Positions 40,141-64,000 of a stretch of 64,000 nt of DNA are shown here, piece by piece. Position numbers and translations under genes: made by a program. The first letter of the stretch is position 1. Each line of letters opens with the position of its first letter. The DNA is from an uncultured Candidatus Saccharibacteria bacterium (GTDB lineage Bacteria > Patescibacteriota > Minisyncoccia > Phycocordibacterales > WO2-35-19). The DNA lies in assembly GCA_964589445.1 (NCBI GenBank), contig CAZPQX010000001.1, forward strand, positions 28,600 to 92,599, read 5' to 3'. The notes beneath the pieces were generated by a model. That model had not been told where the DNA came from, did not search any database, and saw only the letters and a list, made by a program, of their open reading frames with translations.

Positions 40141-40192
40141 TGCATATACACAAATGCAATATCCCCGCTCTTAATATAGAAGCTAGGCAGTC

Positions 40193-41410: not shown

Positions 41411-41447
41411 ATTTGTGTTAATAATTTAAAGTAAAATATAATACTTT

Positions 41448-45658: not shown

Positions 45659-46101
45659 ATTATTTCTGTTTTATACTTCTTTTTCATTTCCGCAAGCGTT
45701 TCTTCTATAATAAATTTTAGCACTTTCAGATCGATATCCGCCACACTTTTTATAGCAAGGCATGATTTGCCTGAAATTTTATACTTCCCGAGCTTTTCAA
45801 TGTCTTTTTTATAACTCTCCCAACCAATGATGTTGTATAGAGTGAAGCCCGTTTTAGAGACAGCAAAGCCTGTCATAAGGTATGAATGTTCCCCTCCTTT
45901 ACTGTCCAAGTAATGATATTTCCCAAACCCAAAGATTTTATTCCACATCACGCACGGTGAGCCAGTAGCTTTTGAGTACAGGTCAACCAAAGCCAACGCT
46001 TCGCTCTGCACTTTTTCCTTACCCTTAAAGTTTTCTTTCAAATATTTTTCAGGGCTAATGGTTGTTGGTTGTGTTTTGTTGGTGTAGGTCATAATGTTCA
46101 T
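45655..46101 (-). CDS. DUF1801 (YdhG-like) domain protein
   Basis: 148 aa; pattern matches DUF1801. Confidence 0.55.
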   Translation of the reverse strand: MNIMTYTNKTQPTTISPEKYLKENFKGKEKVQSEALALVDLYSKATGSPCVMWNKIFGFGKYHYLDSKGGEHSYLMTGFAVSKTGFTLYNIIGWESYKKDIEKLGKYKISGKSCLAIKSVADIDLKVLKFIIEETLAEMKKKYKTEII

Positions 46102-49100: not shown

Positions 49101-49423
49101 TCAACCTTACCGTCACCGCCTCCAACAGGACCCGTTTGTTTCCTTAGGTTGGGCTGAATCACGAGCTGACAAAGTTTTCGTGCAAACTCTTCGAAATCGT
49201 ACTCTTGCTTCTTAATCGATAATGTCTCTAAATGGTACTCCAGTTCCAAACTATTGAGCTGTGATTCTTTTATCACTTCCGTGTCTGAAAAACTACCCGG
49301 TCGTCGTTTTTCCATGAAGCTTCGTGGAGAAAAGTTTGTACCATCATTTTCGCGTTTAACTTTTTGTTTCATAATCTTTTTAATTACTAAACACCTTCGT
49401 ACACACCTCCACCAAAAATCCAT
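46055..49423 (-). CDS. large (about 1100 aa) cytoplasmic hypothetical protein, no recognisable domains
   Basis: Long uninterrupted ORF with native AT-rich codon usage; the real start may be an internal Met near 49372; no P-loop or nuclease motifs found. Confidence 0.55.
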   Translation of the reverse strand: MDFWWRCVRRCLVIKKIMKQKVKRENDGTNFSPRSFMEKRRPGSFSDTEVIKESQLNSLELEYHLETLSIKKQEYDFEEFARKLCQLVIQPNLRKQTGPVGGGDGKVDTETAPVSEVIKDTHYFGVEKVPNERWGFAFSTTVNWKTKVDGDVKKMIEVGRDYKRLFFVTSRFVKADQRAKVEDALTKQYGVPVTIHDRTWIIDKVFGNRLQYLAIEELKIDPAYKEIVRIGPRDTDRQAAFEKMNKSIDEAVQEDRVNFAIVDDALSSAIVAAEMEKPKIEVEGLFARAKRLAEKYGSSEQSFNAKYNEIWTLYFWYNDYDILINNYQEIESLTDGTVNFSVVERLNNLLGLMRTLAASTDKVEVSYTDSKKKIVQEKLEAFKNDESRPSAALQAEFMLIMLEIPWSRKDQNAMSEIFNNISDIVDRSKGLLGFPLERIYTLIGEINDVYSGNESFEKLQDKLVEVISERKSSTEAARVILERSMQHIDGKRFYKAISSLGKSLVPLYKEEERNGLVIALAHLSFTYEAVGLLWAARAAMLHAASYTTMDFHSKSEINKLQLLSYDRLRLLELRLGRVGYSLEWHQLNHIMNGQFIKSHEEKEKLLHDDMFYGAQLGLLLIKTPEEVLPSLEFLPDTLMSMDLDLAAHALIYRLCGKKALPQVLLEKMNDQEIDEYFDSHFTQPSQAQLSDKPSFYINDEVELKSIILGTTFIVKTKNCSPNIEIGEYILASLEGFLATTVEMDSHGNKSVVSITITKDEALGIKVSHEVKKDGAVTFNITCGDFNPHSLKRSEQESIYKDMFDAVVNIIGHSISFRDAHTDLEKLFRDEEVSVRAFTFASPLVVQGNVLGYKPKRDIKEWITETNKKYEYNESEAGKIKHDLLKQLRDDPDERDEKDAKDRKAIRHDQMENISIIEAHLWDEAGWEGIAYLVAPDEPPVLAVMFTNEDKAKAIFKNWQELLGKEDPENRMRVTTIMGFSKKNPLWYRFVISTNFANAEESKGKLVLNAGRTHTMTPQSLNNLNGFINSFKRWGFYLIAPSFIKDKQSFPPKIFFDHGIVKSSFINKNAWEIGTTDPDAMGLSPEDTDPVIPEGVSNPPVLDTIKKINEHYDLHQQNTTNNH

Positions 49424-49465
49424 TTGTGTCGCGGAGGTGGTTAAAGATTGTGCATCCGTATTTAA

Positions 49466-49885
49466 TCATATATTGAAATTAAAATGATTCACCGCGACCT
49501 CTTCGCCACCTATCGCGCGGTAAAATGCTACGGCTCCCTCATCTTCTGACTCGGCCTCGACAAAAATAGTCCCGACACCTCGTGCGCGCGCTTCTTGCTT
49601 CAATGCTTCCACAAGCTGCTTGCCCAAGCCTTTCTTTTGAAACAGAGGACTCACAGCAATGTCATAGACATACAATTCTTTTGTTCCATGAATTGGTGTC
49701 ATGAAAAATGCTACCAACCCACCAACAACATGCGCTTCCACCACCGCTCCCAAGATCACACATGAACTGTTTTTAATCATTGAGGATAAGTATTCATCTG
49801 TCGTGTTGTACGGAGACTCAAATGCAAGCGAAAAGGCAGTAGCAAGCTCTTTCAATTCAGCTATATTTTCTAATTTTTTTATCAT
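49466..49885 (-). CDS. GNAT family N-acetyltransferase
   Basis: 'IAVSPLFQKKGLGKQLVEAL' (Q/RxxGxG/A acetyl-CoA motif); start set at 'MIKKLENI', not at the longer tracked ORF. Confidence 0.75.
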   Translation of the reverse strand: MIKKLENIAELKELATAFSLAFESPYNTTDEYLSSMIKNSSCVILGAVVEAHVVGGLVAFFMTPIHGTKELYVYDIAVSPLFQKKGLGKQLVEALKQEARARGVGTIFVEAESEDEGAVAFYRAIGGEEVAVNHFNFNI

Positions 49886-50016
49886 AATTTGCTTATATAT
49901 AAACTCCATAATAAACAAAATAACTGAAATAATACAATGTAAATGTCTATATATTTGGAAAATAAGTGTTTTTATGTAAAAATAGTCTGGTACAAGCATT
50001 TTGTACGAAAACATAC

Positions 50017-50105
50017 GGAGACGTGTCAGAGTGGTCTAATGTGCCTCTTTGCTAAAGAGGTGTGCCCTTTAAAAGGCACCGACGGTTCGAATCCGTCCGT
50101 CTCCG
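50017..50105 (+). tRNA. tRNA-Ser (anticodon GCT)
   Basis: Manual fold: acceptor GGAGACG/CGTCTCC, anticodon stem CCTCT/AGAGG with loop TTGCTAA, long variable arm 'gtgccctttaaaaggcac', T-arm GACGG-TTCGAAT-CCGTC, discriminator G. Confidence 0.9.
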
Positions 50106-50180
50106 CATTGACAACCTGTTAGTTTTGTTGACCCATATGCTCGATGCCGAGCTGTGACCCACAAAGCTACAGTTGTAAGA

Positions 50181-50207
50181 AAAAGAGCGAACAATCGCTC
50201 TTTTTCT
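50181..50207. terminator. hairpin aaaaagagcga...tcgctcttttt between tRNA-Ser and the first island gene
   Basis: 7-bp stem flanked by A-run and T-run (bidirectional). Confidence 0.4.
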
Positions 50208-50215
50208 TTTACTAC

Positions 50216-50806
50216 TCAACCTGCCTTCGGTAACGGAACTACTAGCTCAAAGCCATTAGCACTGGTGTTGTGCGGATCCTCAGCAAGACCAATACAGAAC
50301 GTATTAAGCGGACTTTCCGGTAGATCTATCGTACCCATCCCTTCCGTTGGTTGATATCCTCCTGCCGTAAACGGCAGACCGTTCTCCCCGAGGAAGGAAA
50401 AGATAATAACAACGCTGTTCGTGTTGGTCGGCGGCGTAAGCACAAGCGGGTTTGGCTTCGGCTGGTCGTTATCGAGTGTCTGCCAATCCTTTATGCGAAT
50501 CATAAAAAGCACGCCCGAGACAGGTAACGGCACTTTGTAAAATGCTCGTTCCGTCTTGCCGTTTACAATCTCTTTCACTTCGAGCAGGTTGTCTGGGAAC
50601 TTGTACGAGATGTCGAGGGTTGTCGGGTCGGTGCGCTTGATAGGAACAGGTAATGTAGTTGGCACATCCGTGCCTCTCGTCAGGTCGGCTATCTTGTTCT
50701 TGAAAGAGAGCTTGAGACAGCCGCGTCCCTGCGCGTCCTTGAAATACAGAAGCGATCCGAGGTATTTATTGCCTATCAGTAGATGTGACTTGATCTCGTT
50801 GCTCAT
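50216..50806 (-). CDS. hypothetical protein (196 aa)
   Basis: ORF with island-type composition; no motifs. Confidence 0.45.
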   Translation of the reverse strand: MSNEIKSHLLIGNKYLGSLLYFKDAQGRGCLKLSFKNKIADLTRGTDVPTTLPVPIKRTDPTTLDISYKFPDNLLEVKEIVNGKTERAFYKVPLPVSGVLFMIRIKDWQTLDNDQPKPNPLVLTPPTNTNSVVIIFSFLGENGLPFTAGGYQPTEGMGTIDLPESPLNTFCIGLAEDPHNTSANGFELVVPLPKAG

Positions 50807-51293
50807 ATTCGTTTATGCGCTGGGCTAGTTCAGCAGGATCAAAGCGACCTTTGTTTTCTATTCGGAGCAGTGGCACGCCCGCATCAGCTAAAATGCGCTC
50901 CACCTCTTTGTCTCGCTCCTGTCGGTCAGGTCGTTCATGACTTTTGTCGTCTAGCTCAATGGCGAGCTTGGGCGAAATGTACGCCTTGTCGCACAGCACG
51001 AAATCAACGGACTTGCGGTTGATGTGTGCGAGTGCCGCACGCCAGTCCTGTCCCTTCACTTTGTTATCAAGAATGGTCGGGAGATGCACCTGTGCGAAGA
51101 CGTAGTATTTGTCGCCAACAGCGGCAATGAGTGCACCATAGAATTCGTGCTCAGCACGAGTGAGGAAGAATTGCTTACGGGTGTAGCGATACTTTGGTTT
51201 CTCGCGTTCTTCGCCGCCTTCAACAACCGCCTTGAGAATAGCTAGAGCTATGAAGAGGACTATGACGATTCCTGCGAGGATATAAATATTCAT
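50766..51293 (-). CDS. DUF2726-like (restriction-endonuclease-fold) protein with N-terminal TM helix
   Basis: 175 aa; 'YYVFAQVHLPTIL...VDFVLCDK...IELDDKSH' fits the DUF2726/PD-(D/E)xK-like family often seen in defence islands. Confidence 0.5.
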   Translation of the reverse strand: MNIYILAGIVIVLFIALAILKAVVEGGEEREKPKYRYTRKQFFLTRAEHEFYGALIAAVGDKYYVFAQVHLPTILDNKVKGQDWRAALAHINRKSVDFVLCDKAYISPKLAIELDDKSHERPDRQERDKEVERILADAGVPLLRIENKGRFDPAELAQRINEYEQRDQVTSTDRQ

Positions 51294-51302
51294 CCGATTT
51301 CA

Positions 51303-52061
51303 TTAAGAGGACGCTGCTTCTTTAAAGCGGCTCACTTTGCCGTCGTGGATGTCTATCATGAAAGAAAGCAACATGTCGTAAACCAAAAGCCAGAGACCTC
51401 CATTCTTAGTTCCTCGTACGCGCGCTAACCACATGTTATGATTTGATATTTCATCCGCTTTGAAAGAATAGTCCTCCGAGAAAAAACCACCCTTTTCATT
51501 CTTCGCAATTTTATTAATGCAATCTTCTATCAGTTTTACGTATTCTGGGAATGGCTTCCAAAGTGCCATTTCATAAGCCGCCTTGACCATGTGAGAACCA
51601 TAGTTGCCGTTCTGTAGCTGTATGAGAAATTCATCATGCTCTGATTTGGTCTTGGCATACTTCGTAACCTCTACTTTCGTAAGATTCTCGAGGTATTCCG
51701 TTATGTATGGTTGGTTCCTCTCAACGAATTCTGAAACGGCCTTGTCGCTTACCTCCAGTAACTGAATTGAATTCAACAGGTTGATTAGCGCACTTACTCT
51801 AGAAAAAAGATTCTCCGATTTAAGCTCATTTATTTGTCGCTCAATGAGAGCCACAATCGCAGGCGGAATCTGATTGCCGTCTTGGCTCAGGATAAATTTG
51901 ACCTCACCTATAAGCTCTTCAATTTGCTTCCTTGAGTCGTGAATTATCTCAAGCTGTTCCTTTGAGGTCTTGGTTGCAAATTGATCAAAATATTGGACGG
52001 ATTTTATCTTGTTCATACACTTAATGTTATCAAAATTCGTTTCCTTTATCCAGAAAGGCAT
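51303..52061 (-). CDS. hypothetical protein (252 aa)
   Basis: ORF abutting the recombinase gene. Confidence 0.45.
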   Translation of the reverse strand: MPFWIKETNFDNIKCMNKIKSVQYFDQFATKTSKEQLEIIHDSRKQIEELIGEVKFILSQDGNQIPPAIVALIERQINELKSENLFSRVSALINLLNSIQLLEVSDKAVSEFVERNQPYITEYLENLTKVEVTKYAKTKSEHDEFLIQLQNGNYGSHMVKAAYEMALWKPFPEYVKLIEDCINKIAKNEKGGFFSEDYSFKADEISNHNMWLARVRGTKNGGLWLLVYDMLLSFMIDIHDGKVSRFKEAASS

Positions 52062-53413
52062 TATTCCTCTACCAGAGTAATCTTCTTGTCATTCAGCACC
52101 AGCCTCGACCGCAAGTGACCCATTAATTCGCGCTTCTCAAGCGGCGTTCCTTCGCGTAGCACATACTTGGCGTATTCGCGCGTGGCAATGTCATCCTCGT
52201 CGATCTGCATCTTCGGCTTGCCTTTGACCGCCAACCTTTGCAGTCGGTTGAATCGCTTGATTTCTTCCTCAAGTTTCATTCGCATACCAAGTTCATTCAT
52301 GTTCAGCCTATCGATGATCTTGAATAGCTCCTCGACTAATTCCTCCTCGCGTATGTATTTATTCTTGCAGTTACGATCCCTTGCCTTCGAGCAAGAGTAG
52401 TAGACGTACTTTGCGTTTGTTCCGTCCTTGAGCAGTTTGTATTTCTCCTGCGCCGTTATCCCTGACCCGCACATGCCACAGGTGAAGAGCTTTGTGAAGG
52501 CGAACTCTCGGTTCTCTCTGACTATCTTGTCTCGCTTCAGCTGTTCCTGCACCTTCCTGAACAGCTCCTCGGTTATCAGTGGCTCATGCGTGCCTTGATA
52601 CCACTGTCCTGAGTTTCGGGGATACTCAAATGGTCCATAGTAGATCGGCATCTGGAGCATTCGATACACTCCACTCAATGTTAGCGGCCTGTTGCCGCGA
52701 GTATGGAAGTTGAGGTCGAAGCGGAGCCAGTTGTATACCTTTCGTCCCGACCATTGTTCATACGCCACTTTCTCGAACATTTGCTTTACGATTGGCGCGC
52801 GTTGCGGATCGACGACGATCCTGCATTTCTTGTCCATGAGCTTTTGATTCAAGTATCCGAGCGGTGCCATGCCTGGCCACAATCCCATCTCCACTCTCGT
52901 TCGCAGTCCTCGCTTAACGTTGATACCTCGATTGTCGTTCTCCAATTTTGCTTGGCTTCCAAGGATCATCAGAAGAAACTTCTCGTTCGGGTTATTGCCG
53001 AACGTCTGTCCGAAAGTTCGGATCATGTGTAACTTTCCTGCATCCATCAAATCCACGATTCGTCCGAGATCTCCGGCATTTCTTGAGATGCGATCCGGTG
53101 CCCATGTGAGAATTCCGTTGTATTTGCCGTCCCTGACTTCTTCGACTATTTCATTGAACACTGGCCGTTGACCTGTCTCCTTAGCCGAGTGACTTTCTCG
53201 CTTCATGGTCACGATCTCCAGACCCTCCCGTTCCGCGAGCTGGAGCATCTCCTTGATCTGGCTGTCGATACTCAAGACTTGCCGTTCCTCAGACTCGCTA
53301 CTCTTTCTTGCGTAAAGGCAGTATTTCACCTTTACGGGGATTGCTTCTTGTTTGGCAGCCATCCCATGCGGCGCTTGTATTGTGTTATTCATACAACAAC
53401 ATTGATGACGCAA
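52061..53413 (-). CDS. large serine recombinase (integrase)
   Basis: 'LYARKSSESEERQVLSIDSQ' catalytic Ser motif; resolvase domain, recombinase domain and Cys-rich zinc ribbon 'CGMCGSGI...YYSCSKARDRNC'; true start probably an internal Met ('MAAKQE'). Confidence 0.85.
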   Translation of the reverse strand: MRHQCCCMNNTIQAPHGMAAKQEAIPVKVKYCLYARKSSESEERQVLSIDSQIKEMLQLAEREGLEIVTMKRESHSAKETGQRPVFNEIVEEVRDGKYNGILTWAPDRISRNAGDLGRIVDLMDAGKLHMIRTFGQTFGNNPNEKFLLMILGSQAKLENDNRGINVKRGLRTRVEMGLWPGMAPLGYLNQKLMDKKCRIVVDPQRAPIVKQMFEKVAYEQWSGRKVYNWLRFDLNFHTRGNRPLTLSGVYRMLQMPIYYGPFEYPRNSGQWYQGTHEPLITEELFRKVQEQLKRDKIVRENREFAFTKLFTCGMCGSGITAQEKYKLLKDGTNAKYVYYSCSKARDRNCKNKYIREEELVEELFKIIDRLNMNELGMRMKLEEEIKRFNRLQRLAVKGKPKMQIDEDDIATREYAKYVLREGTPLEKRELMGHLRSRLVLNDKKITLVEE

Positions 53414-53445
53414 CCCTCCCTAGGAGTCCAGAGCGTCCCACATCC

Positions 53446-53778
53446 CTAAGAAGTTGGTAAATCGGTCGGCCTGAATTCCTCGATTTCTTTCCTGAGCCTC
53501 TCCATATCACTGAGTACTGCTGTATAGATTTTCTTTATCTTTTCTTTATCAAAATTTGATTCGTCGTTCTCTAAAAAATCGACAAGGTCATCGTCGAGGA
53601 AAGAAGCAAGCGATATGTACGCTCCCGCAAGAAGCTGCATTCGCTCTTTGATCGCTCGCTTCAAATGCTTCTTCGACTCAGGCAAGGAAGACATCCGGTT
53701 GAACGGCGTTGTGCCGGTCGGCTCATGGTATTTGAAATGCTTGCTCGCATCTATGATTGCCTCGATATCATCATTCAC
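53446..53778 (-). CDS. hypothetical protein (110 aa)
   Basis: ORF upstream of the recombinase on the same strand. Confidence 0.4.
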   Translation of the reverse strand: MNDDIEAIIDASKHFKYHEPTGTTPFNRMSSLPESKKHLKRAIKERMQLLAGAYISLASFLDDDLVDFLENDESNFDKEKIKKIYTAVLSDMERLRKEIEEFRPTDLPTS

Positions 53779-53873
53779 ATAGCAAGGGATGACGCTGATC
53801 CATTTATAAGTCCAGACCTATCGCTCTTCGCAAAAAGTCTAAGATGTTGTAAACTTATGGTAAGTCACTATTT

Positions 53874-54065
53874 ATGGCGAAACCGGATGACAAACTAAAG
53901 AAATTGCCGGATATACTGACGCTTAAGCAAGCCTCGGATGTTCTAAATGTTCATCCAAACACTTTGCGTAATTGGGACAAAAAAGGGGTTCTAAAAGCGA
54001 TAAGATATGGTGACCGTCGAGATCGCCGTTTTAAGAAGAGTGACCTCCTAAAGTTACTCAAATAA
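53874..54065 (+). CDS. excisionase/AlpA-family HTH DNA-binding protein
   Basis: 63 aa; 'LTLKQASDVLNVHPNTLRNWDKKGVL' helix-turn-helix typical of Xis/MerR-type small regulators. Confidence 0.6.
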   Translation: MAKPDDKLKKLPDILTLKQASDVLNVHPNTLRNWDKKGVLKAIRYGDRRDRRFKKSDLLKLLK

Positions 54066-54066
54066 A

Positions 54067-57000
54067 ATGGCTCGCTTCACTCGTAAATTTGATGCAAAGG
54101 CATATTGGGCAACGAAGCCTTACTGCACAGTTTGCAAGAACCACAAAGTGAAGGAAGGAAATATATGCTATGAATGCAAACAAGCGGCAATGAAACAAAA
54201 ACGCGAACTCAATAAGAATAACGAGGTAGAGATAGAGTCTTTTGCCTCTGCTGATATTGAGACTCCAGAGCCGCGAAAGAAGCGCGTTTCTAATATTTCA
54301 GCTGAGGCACAAAACAAAGTCGTTCGACTGTTTACATATTTGGAGAAGGCCCTCGCTGTCGATGATTCCATTGTTCGAGATTTTCGTACCAATACAGCAG
54401 CACCTTCTCCATGGTGGCTGGCAGACTATCCTACAGACCTCGAGAACCTAAGTATCCGCCCTTTTGATACTGAGAAAACTCCTGAAGGCGTGCAATCTAC
54501 TTCATGGCTGAAGGTGGAGAAGAAGAACATCAAGGCGGCACCTGAACTGCCAAGCCAACTTGAAGAGTGGATCGATGAGGTTAACCCACTACAAGAGCCG
54601 GTCGCTAAAGAAAAGGTAGATCGAAAAGTCCGCTTTGCTGACGACAAAGATCGTGAGAAGGAATTCAAGAATTTCCGGAAGAATTTTGAGCAAGGAGATG
54701 AAATTCCTGAAATCCTAAAAGATTGGGTGACAATCTTGCCAAACCAGTTGCCAGAATCAATCAGTGTGAAATACGTTCCTGATAATTGGGCGGATCATCC
54801 TGAGCTTGCAAAGTTGCTCGATGGATATACCGAAAATGAATGGAAGCCATGGGCAGAGCAGGTGAAGAAAGTCTATAAAGCAAATCTTCTCTACGATCAG
54901 CTCTATGCGCTCCGATTGCTCCTGAAGAACGAAGGAGATAACTACGAGCTCCTGTTGGGTCATGGTGTTTTGACCTGGCAACATCAGGGAGTAGGCACGA
55001 TCTACACTCCAGTTTTCCTAAGCCCTCTTACGCTCGATTTTGATGCGTCAAAACGAACGATTGAAATCAACCCTGATCCGATGTTCAGGAATTTCGTCGA
55101 GACCTCATCGCTCTACGAGACTGACAATCCGGCTGAAATGGATCTCATCACTTGGGGAGATACCATCAATGCCAATCCGTTCGACTTCTGGCATCTTGAA
55201 ACCCTCAAAGGTCAAGCACAGACGCTAGTCAACTACATCTCACCGGACGGAGAAGATAATTTTACTGACGAAATCGTATCTGCTCCTACTGCATCAAAAA
55301 ATCCAAGTATCTGGAACGCTCCGGTGATCTTTGCTCGAAAGCGAACCAACGATATGTGGTCAAAGTACGCGGCTACGATTCGCAAGGATATCGAGCAGTA
55401 CGGAGTCGAAGCGACTGAATTCATCACTGACCTTGTTGGTGAATATGACGAAACTCCTGTAGGTGCGCGTGATGGATCTGATGGTGAACGCATGGAAAGC
55501 GGTAATGTATCTATTCCGGAATCAGAACTCTACTTCCCATTGCCTTGGAATGACGAGCAGAAGCGAATCGCAGAAAGACTCGATGCAAATTATGGTGTCG
55601 TAGTTAAAGGCCCGCCGGGTACTGGAAAGAGCCACACCATCGCAAACCTGATCTCTCGCTTCTTGGCACAGGGTAAGAGCGTCCTAGTTACTTCACAGAC
55701 GAGTAAGGCCTTAGAGGTGTTGCGTGAAAAGCTTCCTGAAAATATCAGGAGTCTTGCCGTGTCCCAGTTGCAACAGACTGCGAAGCGAGACGATGTGCTC
55801 CAGCAATCGATTGGAGAGATCAGCTCTAATCTCGGCGAGAGAGATACTAAATTTAGTGAAGCACGCGCAGAGAATGTCCGCAGGGATCTTAAGAAAGTCC
55901 GAGAAGAAAAGGCTACCCTCGCAGCAAAGATTCGGCAGTACATCCTTACTGACTCATCGGAGAATTTGGTTATCGATGGTGAAGAAATAAAGCCTATCGA
56001 TGCGGCAAAATTTGTCGATAAGAATAAAGACAACGAGGCTATCGCTTGGTTTACCGACAAGGTTCCATTTGATTCCGCCCCTAACTTTACAGAGGAAGAT
56101 TTGCAGGAAATTTATGACCTCGCCAAGGATGTGGAGGAGGTAGATCGATCTCTTCACAAAGAAGATTTACCTGATCACTCGATCCTCCCTAATGAGGACG
56201 TGGTATTGAGCGCATTCGCTGCGCATCGTGATCTCAGTGCTAAATCTAAGGCCTCTGACGAAGCGTTCAGCAAGGCGAAGATCGATCAAGAGACGCTTGG
56301 TCAGCTATGGGAACTCCTCAGCAGGGCGAAGAAAGTCTTGGGATCTATAAATCAGGATTACGAGCAGGAAATCTTCGACGCCTGTGCGATTAGCCAGAAT
56401 GAGCGTGATAAGTGGTCTTCTATCCTCTCAAAGATTTCAGAAAAGATTCAAATCGTGGCGAAGGGAAAGAACAATGCTATTGGACATGTCATTACCGGAC
56501 AATCCAATCTTTCAACTCACGACCTTCGCGAGGCAGTCGAAGCGTTGTATGCAAAAGCATCAAAGGGAAAACTTGGAACATTTGGCAAGATGCTTCTCCC
56601 TGGAAATGCAAAGCGCATTCTTGAAACCTACAAAGTGGATGGAGCGGGACCTGATAGTCCTGAGAGAGTAGAAATCTTGCGAAATTCGATACTTGTCGAA
56701 GCCGCAGAACGTGAGATCAAGACGCTCCTAGAGCAGGGACTTTCAGCTCTCAAGAACCCTCTCGAAATCGATCTGGATCGTCTTGATCTGGTCAAGCTCG
56801 AGGTATTCGTTGCAAGCATTCAAAGACTTGCAAACTATCATTCTGATTTCGCTGGAATCAATACCTGTTTCAATGAGGTGAAGGAACTCTCTGATCTGTC
56901 GTTCACTAAGAAGACCGACATTGAGACCGCTATCGAACTTACTGCATCGCGTGCAGCCGCATTTGAGCTTAAGAATCTCGAGAAATCATTTACAGAATGG

Positions 57001-58872
57001 GAAGAAACTATCCGATCGTCAGTAAACTTCCGCACTCAGCACGTCATTGTCGATGATCTGGCTCAAGCAATTGTGAAGCGCAACTCTACCGGTTGGAAGA
57101 GTTGCATTGAGGAACTCAATTTGCTCGTTGGAAAGAAGGAGAAAGCGACGAGGCTTAACGAACTATGTGAACAGATCAAAGAACAGGTACCAAATCTGTG
57201 CCGTGAAATCATCGAGCTAGCTGATCAGAAGCAGAAATTTGATTGTCCAGAGAATCTGCTGATCGCATGGAAAGTCGCACGGCTTGAGTCATGGCTCAAT
57301 CATATTCATGACCATGTTGATGTCGATACCTTGCAGAGTGAACTCGAGCGTTTAAACAAAAAGGAATTTGAACTCAATTCTGAACTCGTTACTGTGCTTG
57401 CGTGGCAGCGTCAGATCGACAAGGTTACCAAGCGTCAGCGCGATGCTTTGATGGCTTGGTCCGATGCAATGAAGAAGTATGGTAAAGGCACTGGAAAATA
57501 TGCGAACAAGTGGCTGAATGCCGCACAGCAATCTCTCAAGGAAGCAAAGAATGCAGTTCCTGTCTGGATCATGCCTCTTCACCGCGCAGCTCAAATGTTC
57601 TCAGACCCTACGGCGGGAATGTTCGATGTGGTGATCTTCGATGAGGCAAGTCAATGCGATATTCGTGGTCTCACTATCGGATATCTTGGTAAGAAATTGC
57701 TTGTCGTTGGAGACCCTGACCAGATCAGTCCGGCGGGCATATTCCAAGATCAGGAAAAGACCTTTGAACTTATTTCCCGATTCCTCTTCGATATTCCCCA
57801 TAAGGATAACTTCTCGATCACTTCGAGCCTCTTCGATCTGGCAAAGATTCGTATTCCAAACATGATCCAGCTGAATGAGCACTTTAGATGCGTTCCTGAG
57901 GTCATTGCGTTCAGCAACTACCACATCTACGATTCAAAGCTTAAACCGCTTCGACATCCGCACCCTAAAGGACTCCTGAAGCCTGCTCTTGCTCCTATAT
58001 TGGTCGAGGGAGGCTATCAGAACACCAATAATAAGGTGAACGAACCAGAAGCGAAAGCTGTCGTAGAGAAGCTTGTAGAACTTTTGGAGGATCCGAATTA
58101 CCAGAAGCGTCCTGACGGCCATCTTTGCAGTTTTGGAATTATTTCTCTGCTCGCAGAAGATCAGGCGAAATACATCAAGGATCTAATTTTGAAACACCCG
58201 AAGATCGGAGAGAAAGTGATCGAGGAAAGAAAGATTATTTGTGGTGACGCATACGCATTCCAAGGCGATGAACGCGATGTGATGCTTCTATCCATGGTAA
58301 GAGCCCTTGATCCAAACAAGCCAAATGACACTGTCGCACCTCTTACTGATAAGGGTGCAGCACAACGCTTCAATGTGGCTGCTACTCGCGCACGTGATCA
58401 GGTATTCCTTTTCCACTCAATTCCTTTGGAAGAATTCCGAAATCAGAATGATTGGCGATTCAAGCTACTTAATTGGTACTACGATCCAAAGAAAGAGGAA
58501 CTCAAAGCTGGCCGCGAGATACTTAAGAAAGAATTTGATTCAGGCAGAGCGTCAAACTTCTCATACGAAGTTGGAAATCTCATTATCGATAAAGGTTATC
58601 AGGTTCTGCCTGAATATCCCGTAATCGGCTATCGTATAGATCTTGTAGTTCAAGGTGCTGAAGCTCGTCTTGCAGTTGAATGTGACGGAGACCAGTATCA
58701 TACGCTCGAAAACTGGGAAGAAGATCAAGTCCGCGAGAGACAACTTCGCCGTGCTGGGTGGGAATTCTGGCGTGTGACCGGTAGCTCATTCTATCGCCAC
58801 AAGGAAAAAGCACTCGATAGCCTTTGGAAGAAGCTCGACGAGCTTGGTATCAAGCCGATGATTGATCGCTAG
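54067..58872 (+). CDS. 1601-aa SF1 helicase (AAA_11/AAA_12, Upf1-like) fused to a C-terminal DUF559/Vsr-like endonuclease; N-terminal Cys4 zinc finger
   Basis: Walker A 'GPPGTGKSHTIANLI', Walker B/motif II 'VVIFDEASQCD', motif VI 'VAATRARDQVFLFHS'; C-terminal 'RIDLVVQGAEARLAVECDGDQYH...RRAGWEFWRV' = DUF559; N-terminal 'CTVCKNHKVKEGNICYEC'. Confidence 0.8.
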   Translation: MARFTRKFDAKAYWATKPYCTVCKNHKVKEGNICYECKQAAMKQKRELNKNNEVEIESFASADIETPEPRKKRVSNISAEAQNKVVRLFTYLEKALAVDDSIVRDFRTNTAAPSPWWLADYPTDLENLSIRPFDTEKTPEGVQSTSWLKVEKKNIKAAPELPSQLEEWIDEVNPLQEPVAKEKVDRKVRFADDKDREKEFKNFRKNFEQGDEIPEILKDWVTILPNQLPESISVKYVPDNWADHPELAKLLDGYTENEWKPWAEQVKKVYKANLLYDQLYALRLLLKNEGDNYELLLGHGVLTWQHQGVGTIYTPVFLSPLTLDFDASKRTIEINPDPMFRNFVETSSLYETDNPAEMDLITWGDTINANPFDFWHLETLKGQAQTLVNYISPDGEDNFTDEIVSAPTASKNPSIWNAPVIFARKRTNDMWSKYAATIRKDIEQYGVEATEFITDLVGEYDETPVGARDGSDGERMESGNVSIPESELYFPLPWNDEQKRIAERLDANYGVVVKGPPGTGKSHTIANLISRFLAQGKSVLVTSQTSKALEVLREKLPENIRSLAVSQLQQTAKRDDVLQQSIGEISSNLGERDTKFSEARAENVRRDLKKVREEKATLAAKIRQYILTDSSENLVIDGEEIKPIDAAKFVDKNKDNEAIAWFTDKVPFDSAPNFTEEDLQEIYDLAKDVEEVDRSLHKEDLPDHSILPNEDVVLSAFAAHRDLSAKSKASDEAFSKAKIDQETLGQLWELLSRAKKVLGSINQDYEQEIFDACAISQNERDKWSSILSKISEKIQIVAKGKNNAIGHVITGQSNLSTHDLREAVEALYAKASKGKLGTFGKMLLPGNAKRILETYKVDGAGPDSPERVEILRNSILVEAAEREIKTLLEQGLSALKNPLEIDLDRLDLVKLEVFVASIQRLANYHSDFAGINTCFNEVKELSDLSFTKKTDIETAIELTASRAAAFELKNLEKSFTEWEETIRSSVNFRTQHVIVDDLAQAIVKRNSTGWKSCIEELNLLVGKKEKATRLNELCEQIKEQVPNLCREIIELADQKQKFDCPENLLIAWKVARLESWLNHIHDHVDVDTLQSELERLNKKEFELNSELVTVLAWQRQIDKVTKRQRDALMAWSDAMKKYGKGTGKYANKWLNAAQQSLKEAKNAVPVWIMPLHRAAQMFSDPTAGMFDVVIFDEASQCDIRGLTIGYLGKKLLVVGDPDQISPAGIFQDQEKTFELISRFLFDIPHKDNFSITSSLFDLAKIRIPNMIQLNEHFRCVPEVIAFSNYHIYDSKLKPLRHPHPKGLLKPALAPILVEGGYQNTNNKVNEPEAKAVVEKLVELLEDPNYQKRPDGHLCSFGIISLLAEDQAKYIKDLILKHPKIGEKVIEERKIICGDAYAFQGDERDVMLLSMVRALDPNKPNDTVAPLTDKGAAQRFNVAATRARDQVFLFHSIPLEEFRNQNDWRFKLLNWYYDPKKEELKAGREILKKEFDSGRASNFSYEVGNLIIDKGYQVLPEYPVIGYRIDLVVQGAEARLAVECDGDQYHTLENWEEDQVRERQLRRAGWEFWRVTGSSFYRHKEKALDSLWKKLDELGIKPMIDR

Positions 58873-59023
58873 GTCTTCGCGACACGTTTTCAAAAGTGAT
58901 AAAATAAATCTACAAAGTCCCAAGACCTAACCCTCGAAAGAGATATGGTCGCAAAACCGTCCAAGGCAGTTTCCTCGCACGAGGATTCGACCTTTTGTGT
59001 CGAGTCGGTGCGGGGATTTTGTT

Positions 59024-60073
59024 TTATCCACCTATCCAGAACCACAGGTTATTCTTGGTCTCCTCGCTCAACTTGTAGGCATCAGCATGCGACATTACAC
59101 CCATATATGAGCGAAGCGAAGATTGCAGGGTTTCCTCGCTAATATTCCCGTCCTTAAACATTGCCGCTTTCTCTCGGAGCTTACGGATCATTCTGCGCCT
59201 CGTTCGTGCTCTGAGAAGGATATGGTGTGGAAAGATAACGTAGCCTAAGAAATCCACTCCTTGGTTTGGCTTACGGACAATAACCTTTTCAGGGTGAAGG
59301 GATAGCTTGAGTTGTTCTTGCAGGAAATTCTCCATCTTGACAAGGATCGGTTCCAATTCTGATTCGTCATGGCTCAATACCACAAAATCATCGGTGTAAC
59401 GGACATAGCACGCGACTTTCAGTTCGCGCTTAACGAACTGGTCAAATTCATTCATGTATACATTCGCAAAAATCTGCGAAGTGAGATTGCCGATCGGAAC
59501 ACCTCTATGACTGAAAAGATCGGACTGACCGCTAGAGAAGCTTCCTACAATTTCTCTCAAAAGCTCCATCATCTCTGGATCTTTTATTTTCCTTTCAAGA
59601 ATAGACAGCAGGATTGTGTGGTCCACCGAATCAAAGAATTTTCTTACATCACATTTAAGCGCATAGCAGGGGCGCGTGTAATTCTTGCTTACTTTGCGGA
59701 TCATTGTATTGAGTGTCGCAACCCCCTTATGAGTTCCTTTGCCTACGCGACAAGAGAACGAGGTCGGTATAAAAGTAGGCTCAAAAATCGGATTCAATAC
59801 ATTGAAAACTGCATGGTGCAGAACTCTGTCTCGCACGCTTGCTTTATGTATATGTCGGCGCTTCGGATCATAGATATGAAAACCCATATACGGACGATGT
59901 TTGTAGGTCTTGTCCCTAATCTCTCGGTACAACTCGAAAACATTCTGCTCAAGATTTCTCTCGAACTCCAGAACGTCCTCCTTCTTTCCTTTGTCCCGCT
60001 TGAATTCGTCCCAAGCCGAAAACAAGTTTTCGGGACTGCACACATTATCAAATAATTTATTAAATGTTTTCAT
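59024..60073 (-). CDS. diversity-generating retroelement reverse transcriptase
   Basis: 349 aa; RT motifs, 'YVRYTDDFVV' (YxDD); DGR-specific motif-4 'GVPIGNLTSQIFANVYM' (SQ in place of the group-II QG). Confidence 0.85.
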   Translation of the reverse strand: MKTFNKLFDNVCSPENLFSAWDEFKRDKGKKEDVLEFERNLEQNVFELYREIRDKTYKHRPYMGFHIYDPKRRHIHKASVRDRVLHHAVFNVLNPIFEPTFIPTSFSCRVGKGTHKGVATLNTMIRKVSKNYTRPCYALKCDVRKFFDSVDHTILLSILERKIKDPEMMELLREIVGSFSSGQSDLFSHRGVPIGNLTSQIFANVYMNEFDQFVKRELKVACYVRYTDDFVVLSHDESELEPILVKMENFLQEQLKLSLHPEKVIVRKPNQGVDFLGYVIFPHHILLRARTRRRMIRKLREKAAMFKDGNISEETLQSSLRSYMGVMSHADAYKLSEETKNNLWFWIGG

Positions 60074-60426
60074 CTATGAATGACACTGACATCCCAATTC
60101 TTAAGAAATCGTATGAGCTTTATAAGATCTTTCACGAATACCGAAGAGTTATTCCGAAGACGGAACGCTTCACGGTATACGAGCGTAGCGAGAACGCCAT
60201 ACTCGACGTTATCGAATGCTTCTTTGAGGCAGGATACATGCGAAGCAATAACAAAGTTGCATTGCTGGAAAGAGCGAGCGTGAAGCTTAATCTTCTGCGC
60301 TTCTTCTTCCGTCTCATGAAGGAGAGCAAGACCTTCGACAACAAGAAATACGTTGCGCTTCAGACGGTCATCGACGAGATCGGCCGAATGCTGGGCGGAT
60401 GGATCCGTTCCAGCAGCGCGAGGTAA
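60064..60426 (+). CDS. avd: Avd-like accessory variability determinant (four-helix-bundle protein)
   Basis: ~117-120 aa; 'IPKTERFTVYER...FFEAGYMRSNNKVALLERASVKLNLLRFFFRLM...IDEIGRMLGGWIRS' matches the four-helix-bundle / 23S-IVS protein family used by DGRs; the likely start is the second ATG (~60076). Confidence 0.7.
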   Translation: MFSSMNDTDIPILKKSYELYKIFHEYRRVIPKTERFTVYERSENAILDVIECFFEAGYMRSNNKVALLERASVKLNLLRFFFRLMKESKTFDNKKYVALQTVIDEIGRMLGGWIRSSSAR

Positions 60427-60474
60427 CAAAAGAGCGTCCGCTGGGACGCTCTTTTGCCGATGAAGGAGTGACTT

Positions 60475-60602
60475 CGGAACGAACCCGGAAGCCGACCCGT
60501 AGTTGTCGTTGGCATTGTCGAACCAGTTCGTGTCGAACTTGACCTTGCCGTCGTTGAAGTTGAAGTACGGGGCGTTGTCGAAGCGGACATCGGAATCCGG
60601 AT
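60475..60602 (-). repeat. DGR template repeat (TR)
   Basis: 128-bp repeat with ~10 mismatches to VR at 61014-61141; every mismatch is at a T on the plus strand (= A in the minus-sense TR). Confidence 0.85.
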
Positions 60603-60906
60603 GTTTGCCTTTACCCGTCCGTGTCACCGAAGCTTGAAAGCGGTTCCTGTTGGAAACAAGACGCGATCTCGCTCCTGAATTTTATTCAGCAACACCCGCC
60701 GTATAGGCTTATTGGTTTGCATTGAATAAAAGCAAGCAGTATCTCCTTATCGCGGCACTCTCCTCCAAACCGTAATCGAGAGGACTCTGGCCGGTTTCTC
60801 TAAAGAGAAAGAGTTCGGCGACGGCAATCCGTAAACGGCCGTGCATTAGCCTAGACTCGCCGTTAATTGTATCAAAAATTGAGCGCTACGCGCATAAAAA
60901 GAAATC

Positions 60907-60936
60907 AGGGTTACCCACGCTGTGGATAACCCTGAA
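60907..60936. terminator. hairpin cagggtta-cccacgctgtgga-taaccctg ~70 bp 3' of VR (target-gene terminator and/or DGR-associated stem-loop)
   Basis: 8-bp stem, T-runs on both sides. Confidence 0.5.
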
Positions 60937-61004
60937 ATTTTTTGCCGCGAATTCAAGAATCAAAAGAAAGGATTCAAAAGACTCAAGAATTCGAGGATCG
61001 AGGA

Positions 61005-61898
61005 TCAGTTCTGCGGAACGAACCCGGAAGCCGACCCGTAGTAGTCGCTGGCATAGTCGAACCAGTACGTGCCGAACTTGACCTCGCCGTCGTGGAAGTT
61101 GAAGTACGGGGCGCGGCCGAAGCGGACATCGGAATCCGGATCGTCGTACTCGTCACCCGAGCAGTCGATCCAGAGGTCGTCATAGTTCATGAGCCGTTCC
61201 GGATGGGTCAGGATCATGATGCCGATGGCGAACGCGCCGAGGCCGAACTCGTTGGAGGCGAAAACCTCGCGAGCACGACGAACGGAACGTCCACGATGAC
61301 GGATGCCGAACTGCGCCGGAACGACGAGGATGTCGTGATCTTTCTGCTCGTCGCCGAGCTTCTGGAACACGCCTGCCGTCTTGGTTGTCTGCCGAAGACG
61401 CTCGGGACCGAGCTGGCCGTCGCGGTAGTTGTAGAACTTGCCGTTACGGGTCTGCTTGATCATGTCGAGCACCTTCTGCACCGCCTCGTTGTAGGTCGGG
61501 GCGATCTTCTCCCACTTCGGGATGGCGAACCATCCTTCGGCGTTCGGGGGAAGCGCACCTTCGGCCAGCTTCTCGTCGGCGTAGCCGATGCCGGGGAACA
61601 GCTCGCGCAGACGGTTGGTCTGTTCGGTGATGCCCTTCGGCTTGTAGCCGGAGAGGTACCCGTAGCTGGATTCGGTTTCCTCGTCCTTGAACTTGTCGGA
61701 GACCGACAGGTCCTTGAGCGAGGCGAGTGCCGCATTGCGGATTGCTTCGGCGAATTCGTCGCCGTGTTCGATGACGCGCTGTGCGCCAGGGTTGTCGAGA
61801 CCGAGCTCACCGAGAACCTTCTCGATGGCATCGGAGCCGAACCGGTTGATCTGCTTGATCTGACCGGCGGTTGCGTTTGTCTGAGTAATCGCGTTCAT
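61005..61898 (-). CDS. DGR target protein with C-terminal variable C-type-lectin-like region
   Basis: 298 aa from the GGAG-preceded start 'MNAITQTN'; C-terminus 'SDVRFGRAPYFNFHDGEVKFGTYWFDYASDYYGSASGFVPQN' is encoded by VR; markedly GC-rich. Confidence 0.75.
   Translation of the reverse strand: MNAITQTNATAGQIKQINRFGSDAIEKVLGELGLDNPGAQRVIEHGDEFAEAIRNAALASLKDLSVSDKFKDEETESSYGYLSGYKPKGITEQTNRLRELFPGIGYADEKLAEGALPPNAEGWFAIPKWEKIAPTYNEAVQKVLDMIKQTRNGKFYNYRDGQLGPERLRQTTKTAGVFQKLGDEQKDHDILVVPAQFGIRHRGRSVRRAREVFASNEFGLGAFAIGIMILTHPERLMNYDDLWIDCSGDEYDDPDSDVRFGRAPYFNFHDGEVKFGTYWFDYASDYYGSASGFVPQN
61014..61141 (-). repeat. DGR variable repeat (VR)
   Basis: See TR. The TR-encoded peptide is 'DSDVRFDNAPYFNFNDGKVKFDTNWFDNANDNYGSASGFVP'; the VR-encoded version has Asn (AAC) codons diversified to G/R/H/Y/S. 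Confidence 0.85.
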
Positions 61899-62397
61899 TT
61901 GCGTTATCTCCAATTTTTCTGAATTGCCGAAATCGCTCGGTGACGACTTGTCCCTGTATGAGACGAGTTTGCTGAGGCCTAAACTAAGCCACAAAAAGCT
62001 CGTCTCATGCATCGTTATGCAGTGATCCTTATCTCAAAGAGCAGTCTCCAGTATCATATCAAACAAATGACTGTTTGTCAATGATTTTGGCGATATGTCA
62101 AATGTCGGTAAAAGGGCTTCGCAACAGCCTTTTTCTAAGCTAAGCTACTGACTAATACCATCAATTTTGGTATTATGTTCTTGGTACAACTGAATATGAA
62201 TTGACCTAACCCCTCAGGGATTTCCCCGAGGATATGGTCGAAAATTCCGTCCAAAGTAAAGAACTCCTAATCAGAGCTACTTTGGACGGTCATATCTCGA
62301 AAGGGGTATGGGTATATCTCACGGGATATATCGGCCTGGTTAGGAGCTTTTTGCTACCTGACTAATTATTAGATTAGTTAAAAATCCGTCCAAAAAT

Positions 62398-63078
62398 ATG
62401 AATGATTCTTCACAGCCTTCAGCGAAGGCTACGCACCTTACCCTAGGTGGCATTATCGTCTGGCTCTTTAGTATCGGTTTTCTGTTCTCAGGGTTCATGT
62501 CCCTCTTTACCAACTTCGGCATGGGATTGATCATGATCCTCGCGGGTCTCTTGTTCCTCCCACCGCTGACAAAATACTTGAAAGAGAAGCACAACTTCTC
62601 GATCTCCGGTCCGCTCAAAATAGTGCTCCTATTCGGGATCATTATCATGGGCGGCTATTTTATTAGCCAAGATGATGACACGGCACCAGCAACCGTAACG
62701 GAGACTCGTCCTTCAGCCGCGTACGATGTTTCGTCTCTTGTCGGACTCAGCCTCACGGAGTTGAGAACCAAACTCGGCACTCCGTCATACGACACCGAAC
62801 CTACCGCACAGCAACTTGCTCTCGGTGGAATCGATACGTGGGAAAAGAGCTGGGATGTCGGTGAGTACAGCATCATGGCAACGTACGACATCAAGACAAA
62901 GGAAATCACTGACCTGTTCTTCGGCGCAGATAGCGACGCGGCCTTCAAGCGATTCGAGGATACCAACAATATCCTTGCCGCAGGAAACCTCTCAACAAGC
63001 GATCCTAAATACTCGGTCGAGTTCGTCAAAGCGAAGAATGGTCCCGGCTACACCGGAGCTATCATCCGCGCAAAGTAA
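62398..63078 (+). CDS. membrane protein with extracytoplasmic C-terminal domain
   Basis: 226 aa; 3 TM helices then 'SQDDDTAPATVTETRPSAAYDVSSLVG...' soluble domain. Confidence 0.5.
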   Translation: MNDSSQPSAKATHLTLGGIIVWLFSIGFLFSGFMSLFTNFGMGLIMILAGLLFLPPLTKYLKEKHNFSISGPLKIVLLFGIIIMGGYFISQDDDTAPATVTETRPSAAYDVSSLVGLSLTELRTKLGTPSYDTEPTAQQLALGGIDTWEKSWDVGEYSIMATYDIKTKEITDLFFGADSDAAFKRFEDTNNILAAGNLSTSDPKYSVEFVKAKNGPGYTGAIIRAK

Positions 63079-63081
63079 GCC

Positions 63082-63879
63082 ATGAAATTCCAATTACCCG
63101 GCTTCGTCGATCGGTACTTCAAGAAACAAGAGGGTCTCAAGAAATACCAAGAATCAATTACTTCGTTTCTAGCAGACAGCGAGATTTCAGTCGAAGAGAA
63201 CGAAAAGCTTGTGGAGATGCAAAAGGAATTCGGCCTATTCGCCGAGGACGTGAAAGGTATTCACAAAACCTCGATTGCTTCCGTATTCACGAGTATCGGT
63301 TCTGACAAACGGATCACTGACGAGGAGAAAGTTTCTCTTGAAAAGTTGCTTACCCACTTCAACGTCTCGAAAGAAGACATCGCGTTCAATCAAGACAGCT
63401 TCAACAAGTATTATGCTCTTGCTCTCATTGATAAGGGAGTGCTGCCTACGATAAGTAACCCTGAGTCACAGGTGAATATTGTCTTCAAACCAGATGAGAT
63501 CCTGCACTGGGGCATGGTGGCAAACTTGATGAAGCGTAAGAAGATAACGACAAAAATAAATTACGGCGGACTCACCGCTTCGGTCAAGATTATGAAAGGG
63601 GTACGCTACCGCGTTGGCTCGATGAACATAGGTAGCGAATCCAAGGAAATAATAGATATGGAGGATTCCGGCATCTTCTACGTCACTAACCAACGTCTTG
63701 GCTATCTTGGATACCGCAAACAATTCTCGTTCCCATTCAAGAAGATTGGGTCACTAGAGCTTCGTCCAGATGGACTTCATATCTTCAAGGACGGCAAGGA
63801 AGCCCCGTATATTCTTCAGTTGAGCGATTACGAGTTAGCACTTGCGGTTATTTCATTCCTCTTAAATAAGGACGCATAA
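63082..63879 (+). CDS. hypothetical protein (265 aa)
   Basis: ORF immediately after the previous gene; no motifs. Confidence 0.45.
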   Translation: MKFQLPGFVDRYFKKQEGLKKYQESITSFLADSEISVEENEKLVEMQKEFGLFAEDVKGIHKTSIASVFTSIGSDKRITDEEKVSLEKLLTHFNVSKEDIAFNQDSFNKYYALALIDKGVLPTISNPESQVNIVFKPDEILHWGMVANLMKRKKITTKINYGGLTASVKIMKGVRYRVGSMNIGSESKEIIDMEDSGIFYVTNQRLGYLGYRKQFSFPFKKIGSLELRPDGLHIFKDGKEAPYILQLSDYELALAVISFLLNKDA

Positions 63880-64000
63880 GAGCCCCTATAGGGATACCTT
63901 TTTGAATTCCTCTTTGTACTTCTCAATCACATCCAAAACCTCGCTATCTTCTTCGAGGTCAAACCCGAACCTGCCGTCCGTGATGTGGATGCCGTAGCGG

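Follow-up and report, generated by a model that had tools for sequence, protein, structure and literature searches.

How an island that carries a large serine recombinase (LSR) comes to lie directly against a tRNA gene is the question raised by the 64,000-nt stretch analyzed here (the window; contig CAZPQX010000001.1, positions 28,600 to 92,599, of an uncultured Candidatus Saccharibacteria bacterium). Serine integrases are commonly regarded as avoiding tRNA genes, and an earlier note on this DNA, made from the letters alone, had flagged the combination of a tRNA-Ser(GCT) gene and an LSR as an open puzzle. In our comparative analysis, the recombinase family was found at tRNA-Ser 3′ ends in every case that could be resolved. 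Based on the evidence below, we consider it likely, with a probability of roughly 80%, that the island is a 19,054-bp integrative element of a family widespread in Patescibacteria, and that its own LSR integrates it at positions C71–C74 of tRNA-Ser genes. Coordinates are positions in the window; those beyond 64000 are window-equivalent positions obtained via the overlapping contig L001. The features are listed in Table 1.

The GC content steps from 0.381 (positions 40000–50016) to 0.479 in the island exactly at the 3′ end of the tRNA, in agreement with the sharp change in composition that the earlier note had reported. The window is patchy in GC elsewhere (0.43–0.49 at 18–32 kb and 0.31–0.35 at 32–39 kb), and GC alone would therefore not delimit the island. 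On the left side, similarity among relatives starts directly after the tRNA end …CTCCGC. The right end, which the earlier note had suspected near or beyond the window edge, lies 5.2 kb past it. Logan contig L001, found by an exact-protein look-up with the last complete gene of the window, overlaps the window end with 0 mismatches in 2,477 nt and adds 5.2 kb. The right limit was set at the point where similarity ceases among L014, L016, L017, L018, L020, L037, L049, and L050, which is after the motif GGGTACCATACCCGAGTRSMCCGC, followed by nine unrelated flanks; in the window element this motif ends at 69160. The island thus extends from 50107 to ~69160 (19,054 bp), as the discrete foreign segment with an LSR and accessory cargo that the earlier note had described directly after tRNA-Ser. 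The left attachment site, attL, reads …GTCTCCGC followed by ATTGACAACC… at 50106/50107, and the right site, attR, reads …GTACACCGC followed by CAAATAAAG at 69160; the two have only CCGC in common. The earlier note had proposed looking downstream for a repeated copy of the tRNA-Ser 3′ end in direct orientation; none of at least 12 nt was present in the window or the 5.2-kb extension, the far end having CCGC only. The ends are also marked by contig breaks, since assembly graphs branch where contexts diverge: one metagenome contig from JGI (19,057 nt, 99.5% identical to the island) starts with CGCATTGAC and stops with GTACACCGC (window-equivalent 50104–69160), and three MEGAHIT contigs of a relative, judged by their length, stop one base beyond the same core. 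The stop of L001 26 nt past CCGC (30 shared bases, or k − 1) was considered as a sign of a coexisting empty site and was not used, because an element variant with a different base before CCGC gives the same break.

Homologues of the window LSR were identified in more than 120 clusters at 74–100% protein identity, and the named ones all belong to Patescibacteria (Kaiser-, Nomura-, Uhr-, and Niyogibacteria, and Paceibacterota). An LSR that differs from that of the window at 2 of 433 residues, here called the L002 type, is present on at least 24 contigs. Ten of these loci were fetched and contain a common 15.2-kb element that has the backbone of the window element and different cargo, abutting a tRNA-Ser gene in every locus (two GGA genes, plus CGA, GCT, and TGA). 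Over its 15,219 nt, 0–4 mismatches were observed among the eight loci compared with L002, despite different tRNA-Ser and host genes, and the GC of the host flanks ranges from 0.39 to 0.535. The shared host sequence is 7 nt, far too short for chimeras at k = 141. The same layout was found with LSRs at 77–82% identity (L033, L035, and L037) and in the relatives L013, L014, L016, L019, and L038; the metagenome-assembled genomes of the relatives are labeled Saccharibacteria, Vogelbacteria, Nomurabacteria, and Paceibacterota. In total, all 13 occupied junctions examined adjoin the 3′ end of a tRNA-Ser gene, representing 12 distinct tRNA sequences with the anticodons GCT, GGA, CGA, and TGA, plus one called ACT, and the LSR reads toward the tRNA in all cases. 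The T-loop GTTCRAATC and the end CTCCGC are invariant in the occupied tRNA-Ser genes; tRNA-Val, tRNA-Glu, and tRNA-Arg of the same loci have the T-loop in common with them but lack CTCCGC. In L037, where the occupied gene (18865–18952) is the one called ACT, an unoccupied tRNA-Ser(GCT) 1.1 kb away ends with CTCCGCCA. A single gene order in all relatives, named in the earlier note as what would speak against an island, was not seen; the relatives differ, and the element occurs in many genomic contexts. The comparison argues that insertion at tRNA-Ser is a property of the whole family and not a coincidence.

The LSR contains the domains Resolvase (PF00239, E = 3.5e-19), Recombinase (PF07508, E = 1e-13), and Zn_ribbon_recom (PF13408, E = 1.9e-9). 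It can be aligned from end to end with SPbeta SprA and the A118 integrase, and the C-terminal domain structures of the latter (4kis and 6dnw) were matched as well. The YxRxS nucleophile motif is aligned, with YARKSS in the LSR and YLRRSR in SprA. A coiled-coil motif in the zinc-ribbon domain controls directionality in LSRs, and the last 70 residues of the window LSR contain many heptad-like charged residues. DUF4368 was not detected in the LSR by Pfam. Its NCBIfam scores are far under the cut-offs for the CcrA, CcrB, CcrC, and XisF equivalogs, which places it outside the Ccr and XisF subfamilies. Between the window copy (52061–53362, minus strand) and L002 (10001–11302), 2 of 433 residues (99.5% identity) and ~10% of the nucleotides differ, corresponding to a synonymous divergence (dS) of 0.64 and a ratio of nonsynonymous to synonymous divergence (dN/dS) of ~0.017. 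The other backbone genes show dN/dS values of 0.05–0.40, and the LSR is thus the most strongly constrained gene of the element. In the minimal 8.6-kb element of L033, the 15.2-kb element, and the window element alike, it is the only gene of recombinase type, and no other gene is present in every version of the element with intact ends. No tyrosine recombinase of the Phage_integrase family was detected by Pfam in the open reading frames (ORFs) of the element and its extension, or among the precomputed domains of the relatives. Boundaries, target, orientation, and movement between hosts are shown for this family, and no other recognizable recombinase accompanies it.

In the reaction that we propose, the LSR would join attP, made up of the two element ends, to an attB whose left half would be the 3′ end of any tRNA-Ser gene, consisting of the T-loop GTTCRAATC and the acceptor end CTCCGC. 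For the window element, the reconstructed attP reads …GTACACCGC·ATTGACAACC… (junction …CCCGAGTACACCGCATTGACAACCTGTTAG…). The reconstructed attB of the window host reads …GTCTCCGC·CAAATAAAG, i.e., GTCTCCGCCAAATAAAG (junction …CCGTCCGTCTCCGCCAAATAAAGATCAAAAT…), and is a tRNA-Ser gene with an encoded CCA. Strand exchange would take place inside CCGC, at tRNA positions 71–74, and the exchanged dinucleotide is probably CC (C71–C72), the sole non-palindromic pair in the core. LSR reactions take their polarity from a non-palindromic central dinucleotide, and CC as the exchanged pair would explain the constant orientation. Across the family, attL and attR have 4–5 bp in common (CCGC or CCGCA) without duplication, which fits the 2-bp crossover of serine recombinases. 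At tRNA genes, the usual trace of a tyrosine integrase is a displaced tRNA fragment (PMC7192596). With exchange at the extreme end of the tRNA, the mature tRNA body through the discriminator G73 would stay host-encoded, and no tRNA fragment would have to be duplicated for integration. The tRNA would keep its body through G73 and C74 and obtain its next bases from the element (GCA instead of GCCA), and its maturation would then rely on 3′ trimming and CCA addition.

The arms of the putative attP carry two further features that are unusual for an LSR. A direct repeat, CGACC[C/T]ACAAA, lies ~51 nt inside attL (50156–50165) and ~88 nt inside attR (69072–69081), with corresponding copies in L016 (781 and 15967), L014 (3011 and 15915, both of the T variant), and L037 (18815 and 6909), and might be bound by an accessory protein. 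In the tRNA-proximal arm, two GACCC motifs enclose a hairpin (50131–50157), which was predicted in seven of eight variants by single-sequence folds (z-scores to −4; relatives L013, L014, L019, L033, L035, and L037), with a stem sequence that differs in each variant. RNAalifold did not recover this hairpin in the arm, because the stems are not aligned by sequence. The hairpin might affect the 3′ trailer of the tRNA, or it might work as a structure in the DNA. The perfect 14-bp inverted repeat next to this arm looks like a bidirectional terminator.

Several observations weigh against integration by the LSR at tRNA-Ser. Characterized LSR sites usually show some dyad symmetry, with a minimal attP of ~50 bp and an imperfect dyad about the crossover, whereas the best scores in four reconstructed attP sites are 8–11 of 23 positions and off-core. 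The downstream half of attB is not conserved over nine hosts and appears nearly free of sequence constraint, which is unusual for an LSR that binds as a dimer. The LSR gene is located 2–8 kb from the element end, with cargo between, and no directionality factor was identified for the element. The attP pattern expected of an excised circle is absent from IMG/VR and from 775 kb of fetched loci. As for the empty site in island-free relatives, which the earlier note had suggested looking for, exact-protein look-ups with the host genes UbiA and GNAT gave only occupied or incomplete contigs, and at L016 a metagenome scan with the host gene past the far end gave the same occupied contig only. The identical copies come from metagenome assemblies, in which consensus collapse could mask minor variants. 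Finally, the 495-, 256-, 265-, 226-, 124-, and 64-aa proteins are without family and leave formal room for a hidden recombinase in the larger elements; like the 110-aa protein, they gave no match in Pfam, PHROGs, NCBIfam, PADLOC, or PDB sequences.

These points bear on three other explanations. If another enzyme integrated the element, either a host factor or an unrecognized recombinase or transposase among the backbone proteins (the 495-aa or the 256-aa one, for example), the LSR would have another role, for instance in multimer resolution or inversion; the six backbone proteins without a family in Pfam, PHROGs, and NCBIfam, the lack of clear dyad symmetry in attP, and the position of the LSR gene away from both element ends would all be in line with this. 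The minimal element of L033, however, has neither the 495-aa nor the 256-aa gene and is still found at a tRNA-Ser(GGA) in the same orientation, and it is the LSR that is retained in all versions with intact ends and that is under the strongest constraint (dN/dS 0.017). Its architecture, with Recombinase domain and zinc ribbon, is that of an integrase and not of a small resolvase, and junctions with only 4–5 bp in common and no target-site duplication are what a serine recombinase predicts. We regard a different integrating enzyme as quite unlikely. The island could also be a prophage or a phage satellite, packaged in phage particles and with the LSR as phage integrase. Fusions of ParB_N and methylase domains, orphan methylases, and diversity-generating retroelements (DGRs) are common in phages, and the presence of identical copies in hosts whose GC differs widely points to an efficient vehicle. 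We nevertheless identified no capsid, terminase, portal, tail, or lysis gene, PHROGs gave only marginal matches to families of unknown function, no nucleotide match was found in 50,697 phage records, and both the 495-aa backbone protein and the attP pattern are absent from IMG/VR. With 8.6–19 kb, the elements are also small for a tailed phage. A phage-satellite lifestyle is possible for the element, and the phage explanation as a whole is unlikely. Plasmid databases gave no nucleotide match to the element either, and no relaxase, coupling protein, or type IV secretion component was matched in Pfam or NCBIfam, the six backbone proteins being without family.

Least probable, in our view very unlikely, is that the window copy is a fixed, immobile remnant at a tRNA-Ser hotspot that gathers foreign genes by other routes. 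Neither an empty site nor a circle was recovered for the window host, and decay does occur in the family: in L039 and L040, the backbone (206, 263, 500, 64, and 124 aa, two methylases, and 232 aa) is present without recombinase, tRNA, or recognizable end motifs, probably as a decayed or captured copy. In the window, by contrast, the LSR frame is uninterrupted, and the end motifs and subterminal repeats match those of the relatives. The 99.5% identical copy that assembles stand-alone in another sample, bounded at both cores, implies alternative junctions in that population. Integration by the element's own LSR is the explanation we prefer; within it, the parts that we infer from sequence are the catalytic role of the LSR, the identity of the exchanged dinucleotide, excision, and movement from cell to cell.

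Table 1. Features of the tRNA-Ser island in the window (RT, reverse transcriptase; TR, template repeat; VR, variable repeat).
Feature	Positions	Strand	Evidence or remarks
tRNA-Ser(GCT), left half of the attachment site	50017-50106	+	ARAGORN, Rfam
Shared core CCGC (C71, C72, G73, C74)	50103-50106	+	Junction compared with 12 other occupied tRNA-Ser genes
tRNA-proximal end (P′ arm): ATTGACAACCTGTTAGTTTTGT, hairpin, then subterminal repeat GACCCACAAA at 50156-50165	50107-50170	+	Kept in all relatives
Perfect 14-bp inverted repeat, A and T runs on either side	50177-50208	.	Between element end and first cargo gene
196-aa protein, cargo slot 1	50216-50806	-	ORF; also in L013, L043
DUF2726 protein, nuclease-like fold family, cargo slot 1	50766-51293	-	Pfam PF10881, E = 8e-32
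252-aa protein, cargo slot 1	51303-52061	-	ORF
LSR, 433-443 aa, proposed integrase	52061-53392	-	Pfam; reads toward tRNA
110-aa protein upstream of LSR	53446-53778	-	ORF
5.08-kb cargo insert	53818-58896	+	Absent from closest relative L013 and other family members
HTH_17 protein	53874-54065	+	Pfam
1601-aa superfamily 1 (SF1) helicase with MTES_1575 nuclease	54067-58872	+	Pfam
DGR, whole	59024-62012	-	Pfam, repeat search
DGR RT	59024-60073	-	RVT_1, E = 1.2e-26
DGR Avd	60064-60426	+	bAvd, E = 1.6e-17
DGR TR	60472-60602		131-nt TR/VR pair
DGR target gene	61005-62012	-	VR 61011-61141
LOOT RNA (Rfam RF03000)	62203-62332	+	cmscan 78.1 bits vs gathering score 46.4; model positions 1-121
226-aa and 265-aa backbone genes	62398-63879	+	ORFs; 265-aa protein conserved in relatives
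495-aa backbone gene, 3′ end	63886-64000	-	Remainder off-window on L001

Read from the far end, the backbone of the element consists of a 256-aa protein, a ParB_N-N6/N4 methylase, a second methylase, proteins of 124, 64, 495, 265, and 226/206 aa, the LOOT RNA, and the LSR. The genes beyond the window, on L001, encode the 64-aa and 124-aa proteins, an N6_N4 methylase, the ParB_N-methylase, and the 256-aa protein, and the far end reads …GGGTACCATACCCGAGTACACCGC at 69160. The minimal 8.6-kb element of L033 comprises a ParB-methylase, a 173-aa protein, HNH and SHOCT proteins, LOOT, a 218-aa protein, the LSR, and a KAP NTPase. LOOT was detected in all nine related loci scanned, with 71–90 bits (L002 6640–6772, L012, L013, L014, L017, L019, L020, L033 9034–9156, and L035 2091–2227), always directly upstream of the next gene and on its strand; in the window, the pair encoding the 226-aa and 265-aa proteins follows. 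The LOOT stretch shares 89% nucleotide identity with the L002-type element, compared with ~78% for the adjacent backbone. From its constant presence and position, LOOT looks like a hallmark of the element family, as a leader or a small RNA.

Cargo is swapped in at least three slots, one from the LSR to the tRNA end, one from the LSR to LOOT, and one from the 265-aa to the 495-aa gene. The window copy carries a DUF2726 cluster, a helicase-nuclease with a helix-turn-helix (HTH) protein, and a DGR, and in the relatives we identified an SNF2 helicase, a KAP NTPase, a Shedu-type SduA_C protein, APH, and a transposase, as well as P-type ATPases with metal repressors, Dsb and thioredoxin genes, an RHS toxin, and DGRs. 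The genes that the earlier note had named in the island (large serine recombinase, HTH, DUF2726, helicase-nuclease, and DGR) were all recovered by Pfam. Neither the 196-aa nor the 252-aa protein of the DUF2726 cluster gave a match in Pfam, PHROGs, PADLOC, or NCBIfam. The 110-aa protein is also found in L013 and L043, and partly in L019, and is missing from the L002-type element. The HTH_17 gene lies directly upstream of the helicase-nuclease gene, one base apart. The description of this HTH as Xis-like holds for its domain, HTH_17 being excisionase-like; as an excision factor it was ruled out, since the insert to which it is tied is missing from L013 and other relatives and it can thus be no conserved directionality factor. 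The label of defense cargo likewise fits in part. The helicase-nuclease matches the PADLOC candidates PDC-S37, Hhe, and MkoC, and the HTH protein matches mad1; DUF2726 and its neighbors gave nothing in PADLOC, and the DGR is a diversification system and not defense as such.

The DGR is canonical, with an RT, Avd, and an adenine-specific TR/VR pair in which all 11 differences between TR and VR fall at TR adenines. The avd gene is on the strand opposite to the RT, TR, and target gene and diverges from the RT gene with a 10-nt overlap, an arrangement also found in L035 (7163–7513). A 185-aa ORF (60070–60627, minus strand) is spurious, being the TR copy of the VR reading frame.

Further features were noted in two related loci. 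In L037, a second LSR (440 aa; 1439–2761) with MarR and efflux cargo is located 7 kb upstream of the element. In L016, the host flank ~60–200 nt past the far end (~16110–16260) contains a long inverted repeat, GAGGCGGAGGGATTTGA … TCAAATCCCTCCGCCTC. Its second arm repeats 17 nt from the 3′ part of tRNA-Ser(GGA) of the adjacent host, and the structure may be left over from an earlier integration in which a tRNA fragment was duplicated. On the host side of the window, a polyprenyl synthase, a phytoene synthase, a phytoene desaturase-like oxidase, and a UbiA prenyltransferase (41448–45658) form a carotenoid-type set, which is unexpected for the reduced metabolism of an apparently Parcubacteria-like genome. 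The window host is of the Parcubacteria/Paceibacteria type, its FtsZ sharing 79% identity with proteins labeled Zambryskibacteria and Parcubacteria. A 1122-aa protein without a Pfam or PADLOC match (46055–49423, minus strand) adjoins the GNAT gene and the tRNA. Two adjacent ORFs without a family match, 26521–28947 (808 aa) and 28951–31599 (882 aa), share an identical stretch of at least 40 nt (at 28812 and 31464), which suggests tandem paralogues, and a 1575-aa dockerin-containing protein is encoded nearby (18044–22771). The 7-kb low-GC stretch at 32000–39000 (0.31–0.35) ends near tRNA-Val (39852–39925) and may be a separate foreign segment.

Taken as a whole, we see a somewhat better than even chance that these elements represent the first well-supported natural LSR family with a tRNA gene as attB, in which the enzyme reads features of serine tRNA in DNA, one half-site suffices, the element acts as a broad-host shuttle, and LOOT takes part in the control circuit. 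The LSR would then recognize what marks a tRNA as a serine tRNA, namely the T-loop together with the acceptor end CTCCG(C), and one element could enter any of four tRNA-Ser isoacceptor genes across several Patescibacteria classes. The family would be a broad-host-range shuttle for DGR, defense, metal-resistance, and toxin cargo in a phylum whose mobile elements are almost uncharacterized. A dozen independent insertions at tRNA-Ser make this a concrete system for studying the use of tRNA genes by a serine integrase, and one in which the sufficiency of a single conserved half-site can be tested. The hosts are uncultured members of the Candidate Phyla Radiation (Patescibacteria) with reduced genomes and few described mobile elements, and the family carries DGRs, candidate defense genes, metal-resistance genes, and toxins between their classes. 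It could seed genetic tools for Patescibacteria, and it gives the orphan LOOT RNA a genomic home. No earlier description of the element family was found in the searchable, mostly non-subscription literature on serine recombinases in Patescibacteria or at tRNA-Ser.

Among known systems, SPbeta SprA, the A118 integrase, SCCmec CcrA/CcrB, and Anabaena XisF have the same architecture of Resolvase, Recombinase, and zinc ribbon as the window LSR, which shows weaker similarity to CcrB and XisF than in its full-length match to SprA and the A118 integrase. As in known LSR elements, the junction core is very short and long repeats are missing. In contrast to these, the window family targets the end of a tRNA gene and not a protein-coding gene, its site is accepted in four isoacceptor families and across bacterial classes, the LSR is at the small end (433–443 aa), the downstream half of attB is unconserved, and no directionality factor was identified. 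Islander-type, P4-like, and tycheposon islands likewise occupy a tRNA 3′ end, leave the tRNA functional, and have swappable cargo and a GC of their own, and the tycheposons of Prochlorococcus likewise reside in hosts with small, streamlined genomes (bioRxiv 10.1101/2020.12.28.424599). Tyrosine recombinases are used by 910 of 937 tycheposons (bioRxiv 10.1101/2020.12.28.424599). The window element has neither a tyrosine integrase nor a displaced tRNA fragment at its far end and is therefore not a tyrosine-integrase tRNA island; its crossover would be at positions 71–74, whereas that of tyrosine-type islands is inside the anticodon or T-loop regions. The largest survey, TIGER, located 14 of 297 computationally predicted serine-integrase islands in t(m)RNA genes (Mageeney et al. 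2020; PMC7192596), a use that according to its authors “has not been reported previously” and for which “experimental proof will be required” (PMC7192596). The rare combination is the same, and it is seen here at 12 independent tRNA-Ser sequences, as a family-wide pattern and in Patescibacteria hosts. Multi-targeting LSRs also have one recombinase sequence at several genomic sites (Durrant et al. 2022; PMC10083194); the study that describes them contains no mention of tRNA (PMC10083194). Members of that clade typically have DUF4368 and use short AT-rich motifs around TT (PMC10083194), whereas the window LSR is without DUF4368, and all 12 distinct targets of its family belong to one functional class, the 3′ ends of tRNA-Ser genes.

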